A DNA stretch of 64,000 nucleotides. It comes from Clostridia bacterium. GTDB lineage: Bacteria > Bacillota > Clostridia > Oscillospirales > CAG-272. Below are positions 13,555 to 19,141 of the stretch, one piece after another. Positions within the stretch are counted from its first letter, which is position 1, and each line of letters opens with the position of its first letter. Location of the stretch: assembly GCA_017503325.1 (NCBI GenBank), contig JAFVTI010000034.1, positions 29,840 through 93,839 of the forward strand, written 5' to 3'. Under the pieces are notes generated by a model. That model was not told the origin of the DNA and ran no database searches. It saw only the letters and a program-made list of their open reading frames with translations. Position numbers and translations under genes: made by a program.

Positions 13555-13583
13555 TTGACAAAAGCTGCCGAATGGAGTATAAT
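13555..13583 (+). promoter_or_regulatory. sigmaA promoter of mnmE
   Basis: TTGACA-17bp-TATAAT. Confidence 0.75.
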
Positions 13584-13620: not shown

Positions 13621-15018
13621 ATGATTACGGATACCATAGCGGCAATCAGCACGCCGTACGGCAAGGGTGGCGTGGCACTCATCCGCGTCAGCGGTGAGCG
13701 CGCGGTGGAAATTGCCGATCGGGTGTTTCTCCCCGCGGGCGGCAAGCGGCTTTGCGAGCTGCCTGCCAATTATATGGTCTACGGCCGCATCGTGGATGTC
13801 GCGGACGGGAACGTGCCCATCGACGACGGCATGGCGGTGGTATTTTACGCGCCGCATTCCTTTACGGGTGAGAACACGGTTGAGATCACCTGTCACGGCG
13901 GCGTGCTGGTCACGCAAAGCGTACTGACCTGCATTCTTGCCGCAGGCGCGCGTCCTGCCCTGGCGGGGGAGTTTACCAAGCGTGCCTTTATCAACGGAAA
14001 ATTAGGGCTTTCGGCTGCCGAGGCGTTGGGAAACCTGCTTGAAGCGGGCACGAGAGAGCAAATGCTGCTCTCGGGTGCGGGCATGCGCGGTGGACTTAGT
14101 AAAAAAACAAATGAAATATATGATAGCCTTTGCATGGTGCTCTCCAGCATTTTTGCGCGCATCGACTATCCCGACGAGGACTTAGCCGACATGAGCCGCG
14201 AGCAGATGCGCGACGCTTTGGCGGATGCGCTTGCAAGAACCGAGGCGTTGGCGGCAACTTACCGTACGGGGCACGCGGTAGCCGAGGGCATTCCCACAGT
14301 CATCTGCGGACGCGCCAACAGCGGCAAGAGCTCGCTTTATAACCGCATCGTGGGCAGGGAAGCGGCTATCGTGACCGATATTGCGGGCACCACGCGCGAC
14401 GTACTGACGGAAACAGCGGCCATCGGGCGCGTGACCGTACGCTTGCACGACACGGCGGGCTTGCGCGAGTCCGACGACCGCGTGGAGCAGATCGGCGTGC
14501 AAAGAGCCCTGGAGCACCTGGAGAGTGCCGAGCTGGTGCTTGCGGTGTTTGATGCCTGCGTGCCGCTGACCGACGAGGATAGCGATCTTTTGGACAAGCT
14601 CATGCATCATGGCGGCTGCGTGATCGGTGTGATCAATAAGACCGATGCCGCAAGTGCCGGGCAGGTGCAGGCGCTTAGTGCAAGACTTCAAGCGTGCACG
14701 TCCTGTACAATCAGTCTGTCAGCAAGGACAGGCGAGGGCTTTGACGCGCTGGTAGCAGCGGTCAACGATGCCTTTATTGACGGCGCGATCGATCTGCGCC
14801 ATGATGCCGTGGTGGCAAACGCACGCCAGCATGCCGCGCTGATTGCGGCATCCGAGCGTATCGGGCAGGCAATTGACGCCATTGACATGGGTCTGCCTGT
14901 CGATCTTTGCTGCTCGGACGTGGAGCAGGCAGCCACAGCCTTGGCCGAGGTGGACGGCAGAGCCGTTTGCGAGGACGTGGTCGCGGGCATTTTTGCACAT
15001 TTTTGCGTAGGGAAATAA
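13621..15018 (+). CDS. mnmE: tRNA modification GTPase MnmE
   Basis: DTIAAISTP, SFTGE-TVEI-CHGG, G1 GRANSGKSS, GTTRD, DTAG and terminal FCVGK. Confidence 0.97.
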   Translation: MITDTIAAISTPYGKGGVALIRVSGERAVEIADRVFLPAGGKRLCELPANYMVYGRIVDVADGNVPIDDGMAVVFYAPHSFTGENTVEITCHGGVLVTQSVLTCILAAGARPALAGEFTKRAFINGKLGLSAAEALGNLLEAGTREQMLLSGAGMRGGLSKKTNEIYDSLCMVLSSIFARIDYPDEDLADMSREQMRDALADALARTEALAATYRTGHAVAEGIPTVICGRANSGKSSLYNRIVGREAAIVTDIAGTTRDVLTETAAIGRVTVRLHDTAGLRESDDRVEQIGVQRALEHLESAELVLAVFDACVPLTDEDSDLLDKLMHHGGCVIGVINKTDAASAGQVQALSARLQACTSCTISLSARTGEGFDALVAAVNDAFIDGAIDLRHDAVVANARQHAALIAASERIGQAIDAIDMGLPVDLCCSDVEQAATALAEVDGRAVCEDVVAGIFAHFCVGK

Positions 15019-15045
15019 AAAATAAAAATACATAGGAGAAGTGTT

Positions 15046-17112
15046 ATGAATCAACAAACTGATCCCAAGTACCAAGCGTTATTTACCCCTTGGAAGATCG
15101 GCAACGTCGAGATCAAAAACCGCATTGTCATGTGCCCCATGGGCGGCACGTCGCTGTTCGGTTGGTTTGAGCTGACGGGTTGTCATTTTGACAAGGAAGC
15201 AGCAAAGCTGTTCTTGGAGCGCGCCGACAATAACGTCGGTCTGATCATCCCCGGCATCGCGCCCGTGCGTGATACCTTCTGGGGCAAGTGGCTGTGGCAG
15301 AACCCCAAGATGTTTGAGGATCTCAAGGAGTTCATGGACGAGATCCACAAGTCGGGCGCGAAGCTGTTTATCCAGCTGACCGCGGGCATGGGGCGCTCCT
15401 GGGCGATCACCGATCTGATCGCACCCTTGCACAAGAACAAGTTTACCCGTGCTGTGATCAAGCCCGTGATCGATACCTCGCATGAGCTTGCCAGCCCCAG
15501 CCCTCAGCCCTCGAGATGGGCGCATGATATCATCTGCCCCGAGATCACGGTAGAGCAGATCCACGAGATCATCGAGGCCTTTGCCAAGACCGCAAAGCTT
15601 TGCAAGGACGCGGGCGTGGACGGCGTGGAGGTGCACGCGGTGCACGAGGGCTATTTGCTTGACCAGTTTGCGATTGAATTTTTCAACAAGCGTACCGACG
15701 AGTACGGCGGCAGCTTTGAAAACCGCTATCGCTTCGCAGCCGAGATTGTCAAGGCAATCAAGGAAAAGTGCGGTGCGGATTATCCCGTCTCTCTGCGTTA
15801 CTCGGTGGAGTCCAAGATGAAGGGCTTTTGCGAGGGTGCAATGCCGGGCGAGGACTACGTTGAGGTAGGCCGCAGCATGGAAGAGAGCGAAAAGGCGGTC
15901 AAGTTCCTGCAGGATGCGGGATATGACATGCTCAACGCGGACAACGGCACCTACGACTCCTGGTACTGGGCACATCCGCCGATGTACATGCCCGAAAACT
16001 GCAACCTTGATGACGTTGCGCATATCAAGCAGTTTGTGGATATTCCCGTGGTTTGCGCGGGCAGAATGGATCCCGAGGCGGGTGCCAAGGCGATCGCCGA
16101 GGGCAGAATCGACGGTATGGGCGTGGCGCGTCAGTTCCTGGTTGACCCCGAATGGGTCACCAAGCTGATCGAGGACAGAATTGAGGACATCAAGCCCTGC
16201 ATCTGCTGCCATGCCGGCTGCTTTAACTTCTCCCGCTCCAAGGGTCATGCAAACACGCAGGATCTGACCGATACCATGGGGCTTTCCCGTTGCGCGCTCA
16301 ACCCGCAGACCATGCAGTCTAAAAAATATCACATCGAGCCCGCCAAGAAGCAAAAGAAGATCGCTATTATCGGCGGCGGTATCGGCGGTATGGAGGCGGC
16401 TATCGTTTGCGCGAAGCGCGGTCATAAGGTCACGCTGTACGAAAAGAGCGATAAGCTGGGCGGCGTGTTCATCGCAGCTGCAGCCCCCTCCTACAAGGAA
16501 AAGGACCGCGATCTGATCGCGTGGTATATCCGTGAGATGGCAAAGCATCCCATCGAGATCAAGTTCAATACCGAAATCAAGGACGTCAAGGCTCTGGATG
16601 CCGACGAGGTCATCGTGGCAACCGGTGCCGTGGCAAAGAGGATTCCGATCCCGGGCGTGGAGCGTTCGATCGAGGCTGTTGACTTCCTACTGGGCAACAA
16701 GCAGGTTGGTGACAAGGTAGTCGTCATCGGCGGCGGCCTGACCGGCTGCGAGATCGCGTACGAGCTGTACCTGCAGGGTAAGCAGCCCACCATTGTGGAG
16801 ATGCAGGACGACCTGATCACCACCAAGGGCATCTGCCTTGCAAACACCTCTTATCTGCGCGATTTCTTCAAGACCAACCAAGTGCCCGTGCACTTAGAGA
16901 CCGGTGTCAGCGAAATCAACGAGAGCGGCGTTGTGGTCAAGCACAAGGACGGCTCCACCGAGGCAATCGAAGCAGATTCTGTCATTCTCTCTGTTGGTTA
17001 CAATCCCGCACCCGTGGCAACCAAGGGTGTACACGTGATTGGTGATGCCAAGGCTGTCGGCAACCTGCGTACCGTAATCTGGGGAGCTTGGGACGTGGCA
17101 ATGAAGCTGTAA
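15046..17112 (+). CDS. 2-enoate reductase-like Fe-S flavoenzyme (OYE barrel plus FAD/NAD domain)
   Basis: IKNRIVMCPM, VHAVHEGYLLDQF, RTDEYGGSFENR, Fe-S motif CICCHAGC...C and two GGG dinucleotide-binding motifs. Confidence 0.88.
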   Translation: MNQQTDPKYQALFTPWKIGNVEIKNRIVMCPMGGTSLFGWFELTGCHFDKEAAKLFLERADNNVGLIIPGIAPVRDTFWGKWLWQNPKMFEDLKEFMDEIHKSGAKLFIQLTAGMGRSWAITDLIAPLHKNKFTRAVIKPVIDTSHELASPSPQPSRWAHDIICPEITVEQIHEIIEAFAKTAKLCKDAGVDGVEVHAVHEGYLLDQFAIEFFNKRTDEYGGSFENRYRFAAEIVKAIKEKCGADYPVSLRYSVESKMKGFCEGAMPGEDYVEVGRSMEESEKAVKFLQDAGYDMLNADNGTYDSWYWAHPPMYMPENCNLDDVAHIKQFVDIPVVCAGRMDPEAGAKAIAEGRIDGMGVARQFLVDPEWVTKLIEDRIEDIKPCICCHAGCFNFSRSKGHANTQDLTDTMGLSRCALNPQTMQSKKYHIEPAKKQKKIAIIGGGIGGMEAAIVCAKRGHKVTLYEKSDKLGGVFIAAAAPSYKEKDRDLIAWYIREMAKHPIEIKFNTEIKDVKALDADEVIVATGAVAKRIPIPGVERSIEAVDFLLGNKQVGDKVVVIGGGLTGCEIAYELYLQGKQPTIVEMQDDLITTKGICLANTSYLRDFFKTNQVPVHLETGVSEINESGVVVKHKDGSTEAIEADSVILSVGYNPAPVATKGVHVIGDAKAVGNLRTVIWGAWDVAMKL

Positions 17113-17117
17113 AATGC

Positions 17118-17165
17118 GTAGGGGCGACCTGCGGTCGCCCGCGGGCGCACACAGTGCGCCCCTAC
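17118..17165. repeat. GTAG-type REP doublet (family A)
   Basis: GTAGGGGCG...CGCCCCTAC with two internal hairpins; 44/48 identical to the reverse complement of 58017-58064. Confidence 0.85.
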
Positions 17166-17198
17166 GATCGAATTTAGATGATGAAAGGATATACGTCT

Positions 17199-18476
17199 AT
17201 GATACTGACAAAAGAACAACAGGCAATTCTGGACGGTGAGAAGGGCGAGACCATGGCCAAGGTCATGAAAACGCTGGTCATGTACGGTGACGCGTTTGAG
17301 GCCGAAAAGTTGGTGCCCATTACCTCCAAGTATAACCACCTTGTGACCTCGTTTGGTCTGAAGGTCATGTCTCCCGTGTACGATCTGATGCAGCAGCTGC
17401 TGGATGCAGGCGTGGTGTCTGATCAGAAATTCTCGGTTGACCCCAGACCTCTGGACAAGAACGTACCCGCAAACGTGCTGCAGAATTTTGTTTTCAATAA
17501 GTTCATGTACACCAAGCAGGATTTTTACGAGGAGCAGCTGCATAAGCTGGGTCTGATGGACGACAAGGCCTTCTCCTGTACCTGCTATATGGACGAGGTG
17601 GGCAACAAGCCGGGCAAGGGCGACGTGCTTTCCTGGGCGGAGTCCTCTGCTGTGGTGTATGCAAACTCGGTGCTGGGGGCAAGATGCAACCGTAACTCGG
17701 GCATCATTGATATCATGGGCTCGATCGTGGGCTACGTGCCTTATTTTGGCCTGCTGACCGACGAGGGCAGACGCGCTACCTGGGTCATCAAGGTGCAGAC
17801 CACCAAGAAGCCCGAGGCACAGCTGCTTGGCTCGGCCATCGGCATGAAGGTCATGGAGGACGTGCCTTACGTGGTTGGCCTGGATCAGTGGATCGGCACA
17901 GAGCTTGACGATGCCGCTTGCGCGTACCTCAAGGACTTTGGCGCGGCAACCGCATCCAACGGCGCAGTCGGCCTTTACCATATCGCAAATCTGACCCCCG
18001 AGGCTGTAGAACTTGGCGAAGCTCTGATCGCCGAGGGCGCAAAGGAATATATCATCGACGACGCTGAGCTGCAGCGTGTACAGGACAATTATCCCGTGAT
18101 GTGGAAGAACGCGGATGCAACCCCCAAGCTCTGCTTTGTCGGCTGCCCGCACCTGTCCTTGGAGCAGCTCAAGACCTGGACCGATAACATCGAGGCAGCT
18201 CTGGCCGCAAACGGACAGAAGAAGGTGGTCATTCCCACGGTTCTGACCGCAGCACCCGCCGTGCTGGAGGCGTTCGGTAAGACCGATTACGCCGCAAGAC
18301 TCAAGGCAACCGGCGTCATCACCTCGTATATCTGCCCCTTAATGTATATGAACAATCCGCTTTGCAAGAAGATGCCGGTCATCACCTCGTCCAACAAGCT
18401 GCGCACCTATACCAGCTCGAGATATTACAGAGACGAGGAAATTTTGCAGGCTATTACGGGAGGTAAAAAGGCATGA
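17199..18476 (+). CDS. Aconitase X catalytic (large) subunit, DUF521
   Basis: LTKEQQAILDGEKG, SCTCY, WAESSAVVYANSVLGARCNR, VGCPHLS and TSSNK motifs. Confidence 0.88.
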   Translation: MILTKEQQAILDGEKGETMAKVMKTLVMYGDAFEAEKLVPITSKYNHLVTSFGLKVMSPVYDLMQQLLDAGVVSDQKFSVDPRPLDKNVPANVLQNFVFNKFMYTKQDFYEEQLHKLGLMDDKAFSCTCYMDEVGNKPGKGDVLSWAESSAVVYANSVLGARCNRNSGIIDIMGSIVGYVPYFGLLTDEGRRATWVIKVQTTKKPEAQLLGSAIGMKVMEDVPYVVGLDQWIGTELDDAACAYLKDFGAATASNGAVGLYHIANLTPEAVELGEALIAEGAKEYIIDDAELQRVQDNYPVMWKNADATPKLCFVGCPHLSLEQLKTWTDNIEAALAANGQKKVVIPTVLTAAPAVLEAFGKTDYAARLKATGVITSYICPLMYMNNPLCKKMPVITSSNKLRTYTSSRYYRDEEILQAITGGKKA

Positions 18477-18916
18477 GAGAATTCAAGGGTAGAGTGGTCA
18501 CCCCCGGCCAGGTCACGGCCGAGGCACTTGTGAGCACGCAGGGATTTAATACGCTGGCATCCTTCCAGATGGCATTGCAGTTTGGCGATAAGCAGGTCAA
18601 ATGCGGCGACCAGAATAACACAGATATTCACGGCAAGCCCATGATCGGCAAGGCACTTTGCCTGCCGCAGACCATCGGCTCCACCACGGGCGGCCTTGTG
18701 CTGTATTGCGCGTGCGCCATGGAAAAGAGCCCCGCTTGCATGCTGTTTGCAAACCATATCGACTCGCTGGCAGCCGCAGGCGCGGTGCTGGCCGACGTTT
18801 GGGTCGAGGGCGTCAGCATGCCTGTTGTGGATTGTCTTGGCGATGAGTTCCTCGCTTACGTCAAGGACGGCATGACGGTCACCGTCAAAGAGGACGGCGT
18901 GGTCGTTGTAGAGTAA
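18473..18916 (+). CDS. Aconitase X swivel (small) subunit, DUF126
   Basis: FKGRVVTPG-V-AEALVS and GKAL-LP--IGSTTGG; ATGA overlap with the large subunit. Confidence 0.85.
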   Translation: MREFKGRVVTPGQVTAEALVSTQGFNTLASFQMALQFGDKQVKCGDQNNTDIHGKPMIGKALCLPQTIGSTTGGLVLYCACAMEKSPACMLFANHIDSLAAAGAVLADVWVEGVSMPVVDCLGDEFLAYVKDGMTVTVKEDGVVVVE

Positions 18917-18936
18917 ACGACAAAAAATAGTATAAG

Positions 18937-18975
18937 AAAATCTCCTCCTTGCCCAAGTGCAGGAGGAGATTTTTT
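18937..18975 (+). terminator. Intrinsic terminator
   Basis: AAAATCTCCTCCT...AGGAGGAGATTTTTT after the acnX small subunit. Confidence 0.75.
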
Positions 18976-19010
18976 GGGTTGCATCATCCTGAGTGTCATC
19001 CTGAGCCAAG

Positions 19011-19113
19011 CCCCTGCCCGTCATCCTCGAGCAAGCATTCCCATTTTTAAGATTCTTCGCTGCGCTCAAGAATGACAAAAATGGGAATGCGCCGCGAAGG
19101 ATCTTGGCAGGGG
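19011..19113 (+). repeat. Structured GTCATCC/TCGAGC-type palindromic element (family B), copy 1
   Basis: Outer stem CCCCTGCC/GGCAGGGG, inner stem GCATTCCCATTTTT/AAAAATGGGAATGC; homologous to the reverse complement of 19726-19826. Confidence 0.8.
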
Positions 19114-19141
19114 CTCCGCTTATGATGCACACGTGACACTT

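Follow-up and report, generated by a model that had tools for sequence, protein, structure and literature searches.

A conserved pairing of an Enr/FldZ-type flavoenzyme with split aconitase X in Clostridia: a candidate CoA-independent dehydration and reduction route

The DNA analysed here (the window) is a stretch of 64,000 nucleotides (nt) from a Clostridia bacterium (assembly GCA_017503325.1, contig JAFVTI010000034.1), which contains, on its forward strand, a gene for an Old Yellow Enzyme (OYE) family flavoenzyme followed by genes for the large and small subunits of an aconitase X (AcnX) dehydratase. These are two known enzyme families in an undescribed, conserved pairing: the literature on AcnX, DUF521, DUF126 and UPF0107 or on enoate reductase, as covered by titles, abstracts and term counts, yielded no description of it. 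Likewise, the passages covered of a survey of 2-enoate reductases mention neither aconitase nor dehydratase (PMC11759058). The genes and the diagnostic motifs of the reductase are:

15046-17112, forward strand: reductase gene, an open reading frame of 688 residues
15634-15669, forward strand: codons of HAVHEGYLLDQF, reductase residues 197-208, the enoate reductase signature
16198-16293, forward strand: reductase cluster motif Cx2Cx3Cx23C, residues 385-416
17199-18476, forward strand: AcnX large subunit gene, 425 residues (the open frame begins at 17178, giving 432 residues)
18473-18916, forward strand: AcnX small (swivel) subunit gene, 147 residues, Pfam PF01989

The reductase matches the Pfam families Oxidored_FMN (2.3e-55) and Pyr_redox_2 (2.2e-41), and carries within a single chain a flavin mononucleotide (FMN) barrel, the four-cysteine cluster motif and a domain for flavin adenine dinucleotide (FAD) and NAD(P)H, with GxGxxG motifs at residues 443-448 and 562-567. 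The 2-enoate reductase motif that the original prediction, made from the letters alone, had recognized in this protein is identical to the one printed for Clostridium sporogenes FldZ; the same HAVHEGYLLDQF is printed for the enoate reductases from C. tyrobutyricum and C. kluyveri, the Moorella thermoacetica enzyme has HAMHEGYLLDQF at this site, and the classical OYEs PETNR and OYE2 are without the signature and its glutamate (PMC5882074). When set against that alignment the window reductase contains the subfamily signature HA[VM]HEGYLLDQF, including the glutamate, and E[VI]HAVHEGYLLDQF recurs in all full-length reductases examined from its lineage. All four cluster cysteines are present, with a last spacer of 23 residues as against the 11 of the stated 2-enoate reductase spacing, CX2CX2-3CX11C (PMC11759058). 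The 23-residue spacer is found in all AcnX-linked reductases of the window's lineage but one (L189), in which the pattern picked up a nearer cysteine. On these sequence characters the window reductase is assigned to the Enr/FldZ branch of the OYE family, as a distinct subclade. Its nearest solved structures are CoA-ester reductases, namely 2-naphthoyl-CoA reductase (1.8e-62) and FadH (1.6e-52). The nearest NCBIfam models, BilR-long (372 bits, cut-off 750) and then BaiCD (369 bits, cut-off 825), both scored below their cut-offs, and membership in either family was rejected.

The two subunits that had been read as DUF521 and DUF126 proteins were confirmed as such by the Pfam families AcnX (PF04412, 9e-92) and AcnX_swivel (PF01989, 6.5e-11), and as separate adjacent genes they represent the split type II arrangement. 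The best solved relative of the large subunit is the AcnX of Thermococcus kodakarensis (7cnr_A; 3.9e-39 with the single sequence and 2e-72 with a profile), and the small subunit matches PDB 7cnr_B (7.5e-08). The functional residues of the T. kodakarensis enzyme correspond to those of the window proteins as follows:

Cluster ligands: Cys110, Cys283 and Cys342 correspond to C127, C316 and C379 (by alignment)
Binding of the C3 hydroxyl and carboxylate: Glu129-Ser130-Ser131 corresponds to E148-S149-S150 (by alignment)
Binding of the carboxylate: Lys361 and Tyr365 correspond to K400 and Y404 (via the Agrobacterium tumefaciens residues and spacing)
Small-subunit catalytic serine and carboxylate-binding threonine: Ser62 and Thr63 correspond to S70 and T71 (by alignment)

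The mapping of K400 and Y404 is indirect, both alignments to the T. kodakarensis chain ending before that region. The presumed catalytic serine lies in the small-subunit loop G69-S70-T71-T72, and the mapped ligand and catalytic residues are at least 98% conserved among the distinct orthologs, 155 of the large subunit and 128 of the small one. As the ligand set is of the T. kodakarensis type, which goes with a [4Fe-4S] cluster (PMC8184944), and not the [2Fe-2S] set of type I, the window pair is predicted to bind a [4Fe-4S] cluster via three cysteines. A 603-residue relative (P0141) has an AcnX large domain (1-419) fused to a C-terminal swivel (506-574), a domain order that is the reverse of that in the fused type I enzymes.

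The signals that accompany the three genes are:

15034-15039, forward strand: AGGAGA ribosome-binding site, 6 nt ahead of the reductase start (read from the sequence)
17117-17166, forward strand: Y-shaped double hairpin, rich in GC and lacking a following T run, in the spacer between reductase and AcnX
17184-17189, forward strand: AAAGGA ribosome-binding site, 9 nt before 17199
18935-18978, forward strand: intrinsic terminator closing the operon, arms 18937-18949 and 18961-18973, then a T run

The predicted layout of three open reading frames on one strand with one terminator stands. For the large subunit, a start at 17199 is more likely than the one at 17178 that came with it, because of the AAAGGA site, the lengths of the relatives listed (423-425 residues, nearly all 424-425) and the alignments of distant relatives, which begin only at residue 7-8. 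The AcnX genes are joined by a 4-nt overlap (ATGA), and only 27 nt separate the stop of the preceding mnmE gene at 15018 from the reductase gene. The terminator has perfect 13-nt arms (fold -25.6 kcal/mol, z -3.9, 0 of 200 shuffles as good) and is the sole terminator-like structure of the three-gene unit. The double hairpin (-40.5 kcal/mol, z -3.76, 0 of 200 shuffles equal) is probably an RNA-stability or processing element rather than a terminator; an Rfam scan of the window matched no family, this hairpin included. Co-transcription of the three genes is likely on the grounds of the AcnX overlap, the absence of a terminator between the genes, the presence of one after the third, and spacers of merely 16-29 nt between reductase and AcnX in other genera. 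Contigs from RNA libraries (four runs of one study) cover all three genes at a likeness of at least 90% in 27-28 of 30 bins, with a depth of 0-1.7 at the mnmE end (14500-14961), and one of them bridges the reductase stop and the AcnX start, skipping 69 nt. Because these contigs come mostly from relatives (90-95% alike), give no transcript ends and may include DNA, nothing was concluded from them about a promoter or co-transcription. A promoter and terminator scan returned 6 promoter-like sites against 4.0 ± 1.9 expected, which is not above chance, and missed the real terminator.

Exactly one match to AcnX and one to OYE occur in the genome (2.70 Mb, 96.6% complete), and they adjoin each other; we examined the persistence of this linkage in three samples: 41 relatives, 80 loci of species-representative genomes (AcnX 69-96% identical) and 80 metagenome loci (54-82%), some of the last being near-duplicates; a sister clade was sought and the same ortholog group came back. 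Among the 41 relatives AcnX is present in the window genome, in all 15 other genomes of its genus and in five other genera. The reductase is adjacent in the window locus and in 13 same-genus loci with room upstream, and in one further genome of the genus the operon is split over two contigs, one of which has the reductase joined to the AcnX start. Among the other genera with AcnX it is adjacent in three of five (G023, G024 and G028), unlinked in G037, and in G039 the contig stops at the AcnX gene. The genes flanking the operon in G004 and in the other genera match none of those of the window, mnmE included, which marks mnmE as a local neighbour. In the species-representative genomes the reductase is adjacent at 56 loci, absent despite full flanks at 14, and the contig is too short at 10 (56 of 70 evaluable). 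At the metagenome loci the corresponding counts are 37 with a reductase of the same lineage, 9 with one of a second lineage, 12 with none and 22 too short (46 of 58 evaluable). The linkage of an OYE protein to AcnX that had been noted at a single locus is thus conserved. Gene order varies while the association persists, the 37 same-lineage reductases standing upstream of the AcnX pair in 26 cases, downstream of the small subunit in 10, and further off on the opposite strand in one. No other flanking gene is widely common across the loci, and since the flanking genes differ from one locus to the next the trio moves as a module; it would be a self-contained, horizontally mobile unit.

A comparable association emerges from gene content beyond adjacency. 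Clostridia were sampled evenly and 399 genomes scored, of which 390 reach 90% completeness or more with contamination no higher than 5%; AcnX of the window type, taken as at least 54% identity, is carried by 26 of the 399 (~6%). Of these, 18 also hold the reductase lineage of the window (lineage 1), against a chance expectation of about 2; the lineage-1 counts are floors, two candidates per genome having been scored. In these 18 genomes the two are adjacent in 10, apart on the same contig in 2 and on other contigs in 6. The remaining 8 have the second lineage directly upstream of AcnX, so that an OYE-type Fe-S flavoenzyme of one lineage or the other is present in every AcnX-bearing genome of the sample (26 of 26). 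Where AcnX is unlinked, four of five such genomes encode the reductase elsewhere, at 58-83% identity, the fifth being G042, and among the 41 relatives both genes occur in 20 and neither in 19, the two exceptions being fragments at contig ends. The spread is patchy, with 22 genera out of the 219 sampled across the class (E 1e-60 or better, with a distant AcnX clade included), and the carriers, which come from animal and human guts, are labelled Oscillospiraceae, Acutalibacteraceae, Lachnospiraceae, Ruminococcus and others.

The second OYE/Fe-S/FAD lineage that adjoins orthologous AcnX pairs is about 30% identical to the window reductase; its signature site reads LHG-HEGYL, and its cysteine spacer is of the usual 11 residues. 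It was seen at L202-L210 and at L152, L155, L164, L171, L174, L185, L186, L196 and L198, and in genus g93 it lies directly upstream of AcnX in the four genomes checked of the five sampled, G109 being the fifth. That two reductase lineages stand beside one AcnX ortholog group suggests a pathway defined by its dehydratase rather than by its reductase. The distant clade just mentioned is a split AcnX (L211, L212 and L213; 39-44% identical) in three genomes of one family with no reductase nearby; in its place a HisA/HisF-family protein and a nucleotidyltransferase are found in three of three, and a DUF5362 protein and a PIG-L deacetylase in two of three. This clade may have another AcnX function, and its lack of a nearby reductase indicates that the association is a property of the window's ortholog group rather than of bacterial AcnX in general.

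Based on these observations we propose, as the rather more probable reading, that the three genes encode a CoA-independent route of two steps by which a free 3-hydroxy acid loses its beta-hydroxyl group, passing through a 2-enoate to become the saturated acid. This reading of dehydration followed by reduction is drawn because the product class of AcnX is the substrate class of the Enr/FldZ enzymes: in both characterised AcnX enzymes the C2 proton is abstracted and the C3 hydroxyl expelled beside the C1 carboxylate to give an alpha,beta-unsaturated acid (PMC8184944), and Enr/FldZ enzymes reduce free 2-enoates with NADH and without CoA (PMC5882074). By this scheme the AcnX heterodimer would bind the C1 carboxylate and C3 hydroxyl of the 3-hydroxy acid, S70 of the small subunit would take the C2 proton, and the cluster, acting as a Lewis acid, would expel the hydroxyl to leave the 2-enoate. 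The Enr/FldZ-type reductase would then pass electrons from NAD(P)H through FAD and a [4Fe-4S] cluster to FMN, at which the C2=C3 bond would be reduced to yield the saturated acid. Enoate/alkanoate couples lie near 0 mV, far above NAD+/NADH, so the reduction should be effectively irreversible and strongly exergonic and would pull the freely reversible dehydration forward; the pair could in this way serve as a sink for reducing equivalents. That the enzymes share a substrate is inferred, as are the order in which they act, the cluster type and the role in the cell.

Several observations weigh against this proposal. At 26 loci with full flanks no reductase is adjacent, and genome G042 (completeness not given) has an AcnX pair beside a TAXI-TRAP transporter, with neither reductase lineage found using the window query. 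The distances of AcnX and reductase are correlated over 86 loci (Mantel r 0.65, reached in 0 of 999 permutations), which counts in favour of a module, but shared species history alone would also be able to yield this correlation. Related genomes are moreover not independent, so that fewer separate events lie behind the co-occurrence than its counts suggest. Judged from its 23-residue spacer, against the 11 of FldZ and its three aligned relatives, the reductase may not share the substrate class of FldZ. Finally, 11 of the 29 sampled lineage-1 genomes are without AcnX, and the reductase therefore does not depend on the dehydratase. The occurrence of the reductase alone in some genomes, and of AcnX with a reductase, suggests a dehydratase that feeds a reductase which is also able to use ready-made enoates.

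The same 11 genomes lend some colour to an alternative in which both enzymes share a substrate but work in a different order or with other roles, as AcnX then looks accessory to a self-sufficient reductase. The reductase would act first, for instance on a dienoate or an unsaturated hydroxy acid, and AcnX would then hydrate, dehydrate or isomerise the product; in a variant, AcnX would supply the right double-bond isomer by dehydration and rehydration in the manner of aconitase. Classical members of the aconitase superfamily do isomerise in this way, whereas the two AcnX enzymes that have been characterised go no further than the dehydrated compound (PMC8184944), and dehydration followed by reduction is the simplest match between the product class of AcnX and the substrate class of enoate reductases. 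We regard this alternative as unlikely, though it is the one that survives best.

A different possibility is that AcnX has one of its known functions, with the flavoenzyme standing in for the usual downstream enzyme, which in the proline case would convert pyrroline-2-carboxylate to proline. The hydroxyproline route is likewise a dehydration followed by a reduction (PMC5144071), the T. kodakarensis enzyme is the best solved relative, and Thr72 of the small subunit is also Thr72 in A. tumefaciens. The positions at which the characterised types are distinguished nevertheless differ, when read from a profile alignment that reproduces the structural equivalences stated in PMC8184944 (A. tumefaciens, At; T. 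kodakarensis, Tk):

At Asp203, Tk Ala47: Val49 in the window AcnX (specificity position)
At Ile206, Tk Ser50: Phe52 (specificity position)
At Trp35, Tk Leu27: Leu28 (specificity position)
At Thr72, Tk Val64: Thr72 of the small subunit (specificity position)
Tk Asn53: Lys55, variable among orthologs (phosphate-binding position)
Tk Asn79, At Asn233: Asp81, invariant among orthologs (phosphate-binding position in Tk)

A pairwise phmmer register, which placed Asn79 opposite Val89, was dropped in favour of this profile alignment. Accordingly, neither of the phosphate-binding residues of type IIb (Asn53 and Asn79) is kept in the window AcnX, and only one (Thr72) of the four hydroxyproline-type landmarks Trp35, Thr72, Asp203 and Ile206 is. 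An aspartate at position 81, where both known types have asparagine, argues against a phosphate at that site. The LhpI model NF051439 scores 137.4 bits against a cut-off of 700. The original prediction had noted that none of the known AcnX partners is adjacent, and this extends to the genome as a whole: at 96.6% completeness it gave no match to UbiD or 3-hydroxy-3-methylglutaryl-CoA (HMG-CoA) reductase, both of which were detected in control genomes, and none to the Pro_racemase family. In view of these residues, the LhpI score and the missing partners, the window AcnX is not one of the known types, and we consider that a known function is very improbable. Four of the six AcnX type II subclasses are without known function, and subclasses IIc-IIf lack landmark residues and are uncharacterised (PMC8184944). 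A tree of 29 representatives is star-like, with 6 of 26 branches well supported and the window AcnX in none of the clades so defined, so that it is not assignable among IIc-IIf.

It is more doubtful still that the genes are neighbours by chance or shared mobility with no common pathway. The widely varying flanks and the patchy distribution are what such a history would leave, and shared mobility alone could hold genes together over short evolutionary distances; yet the adjacency outlasts changes in gene order and the swap to a reductase lineage of about 30% identity, and the co-occurrence outlasts the loss of linkage. That AcnX is simply the aconitase of the cell, as the name "aconitase X" originally predicted, with the reductase an unrelated neighbour, has only the family name and superfamily membership in its favour and is the least credible reading of all, since a 794-residue frame of the genome encodes an aconitase-family protein of the conventional kind (PF00330, 3.3e-81), citrate synthase is present as well, and the linkage and co-occurrence with two reductase lineages would be left unexplained.

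To return to the proposed dehydration and reduction of a free 3-hydroxy acid, the neighbouring genes offer some clues to its substrate. A MarR regulator lies directly upstream of the module in 6 loci and a transporter of the major facilitator superfamily (MFS) near it in 5, three of these with identical results. Other genes near the module encode DUF5058 (4 loci), EamA (2), a C45/CBAH hydrolase (2), TAXI-TRAP (1) and also MatE. Such neighbours are compatible with the import of a small organic acid, but they are suggestive only, and none is common enough to name one. Across the 160 loci no CoA ligase or transferase is among the recurring operonic neighbours; at one locus a single AMP-binding gene stands two genes upstream of the AcnX pair. 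At L042, in genome G042, a TAXI-family TRAP transporter (binding protein and fused permease) lies directly upstream of the AcnX pair. Another locus (L049, 4798-11718) has a run of six genes with gaps of 2-39 nt, namely MarR, an Fe-alcohol dehydrogenase, an aldehyde dehydrogenase, the reductase and the large and small subunits of AcnX. The Fe-alcohol dehydrogenase is lactaldehyde-reductase-like, and the aldehyde dehydrogenase is class-3-type and MdlD-like (430 bits against a cut-off of 550). This run gives a hint of an alcohol or aldehyde as a possible precursor of the acid.

More tentatively, and with less confidence than we attach to the two-step route itself, the module might represent the hitherto missing genes by which an abundant 3-hydroxy acid of plant or host origin is reductively dehydroxylated, without CoA, in the gut or rumen. 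Possible conversions under this reading are those of citrate or aconitate to tricarballylate and of 3-hydroxy-3-arylpropionates to arylpropionates; further candidates are 3-hydroxypropionate or 3-hydroxybutyrate to propionate or butyrate.

The surroundings of the operon have features of their own. A perfect sigma-70 consensus (TTGACA-17-TATAAT, 12 of 12) faces mnmE at 13555-13583, and an 11 of 12 match on the opposite strand (13501-13473) faces TetR and ABC-2 exporter genes. The mnmE open reading frame as listed begins within the former promoter, and its true start is therefore further downstream; its Pfam match begins at residue 27. Just past the operon terminator, at 18997-19127, lies a nested pair of imperfect inverted repeats, with outer arms 18997-19018 and 19106-19127 (82% complementary) and inner arms 19035-19057 and 19068-19090 (87% complementary), preceded by a tandem [AG]TCATCCTGAG word; the whole looks like a palindromic intergenic element. 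The spacer between reductase and AcnX is itself variable: in same-genus relatives it measures 165-211 nt, with several hairpins in a row and AGTGATAT or AGTGAAAT after each, and four of six tested spacers of the genus (L007, L009, L012 and L015) carry the Gut-1 RNA motif (RF01706, 50-73 bits) on the operon strand. The window and four other loci have the 50-nt GC-rich double hairpin, which is unrelated to Gut-1, and in other genera the spacer is reduced to the short length given above. The gap between these two genes is thus a hot spot of hairpin elements.

The operon gives one of the function-less AcnX type II subclasses a concrete partner and a reaction class. If the more tentative gut or rumen conversion is true, this uncharacterised subclass would add a third kind of reaction to those known for AcnX and would have a flavoenzyme as its obligate partner. 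If the two-step route holds, gut anaerobes would have a widespread means of unloading reducing power onto free hydroxy acids that need no activation by CoA. The conversion of a hydroxy acid to a saturated acid in two steps would also be of interest for biocatalysis.

Each component has recognizable counterparts among known systems. The mevalonate-5-phosphate dehydratase of type IIb from T. kodakarensis and Aeropyrum pernix (PDB 7cnr and 7cns) has split subunits as here, and shares with the window AcnX the cluster-ligand cysteines, Glu-Ser-Ser, the lysine, the tyrosine and the small-subunit Gly-Ser-Thr loop. Identity to 7cnr_A is, however, low (about 30%, estimated by eye from the HMMER alignment), and type IIb is archaeal with partners from the mevalonate pathway, whereas the window AcnX is bacterial with an enoate reductase as partner. 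Type I AcnX of A. tumefaciens has the same fold, Ser70, Thr72 and the logic of dehydration then reduction in common with the window system, but is fused into one chain, as opposed to split subunits, and binds a [2Fe-2S] cluster through Cys273, Cys508 and Cys510; the third ligand position of type I is Leu381 in the window AcnX, which has the T. kodakarensis-type Cys316 instead. The clostridial 2-enoate reductases FldZ and Enr share the three-part architecture and HAVHEGYLLDQF with the window reductase, and the printed alignment shows SWYWSHPPMY in FldZ for SWYWAHPPMY here and both dinucleotide-binding motifs in common. FldZ and its three aligned relatives have an 11-residue cysteine spacer in contrast to the 23 of the window reductase, which has an AcnX neighbour where none is reported for FldZ. 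At the level of pathways, the Fld (phenyllactate) and carnitine (CaiD/CaiA) routes achieve a net removal of a hydroxyl group via an unsaturated intermediate, as is proposed here. Both act on CoA thioesters and are used by anaerobes as an electron sink. The original prediction of a pathway from AcnX to an enoate reductase is supported by the linkage, the co-occurrence and the catalytic residues, and its analogy to Fld holds in logic only. Fld removes the 2-hydroxyl of a 2-hydroxyacyl-CoA by radical chemistry, whereas the chemistry of AcnX would take the 3-hydroxyl off a free acid.

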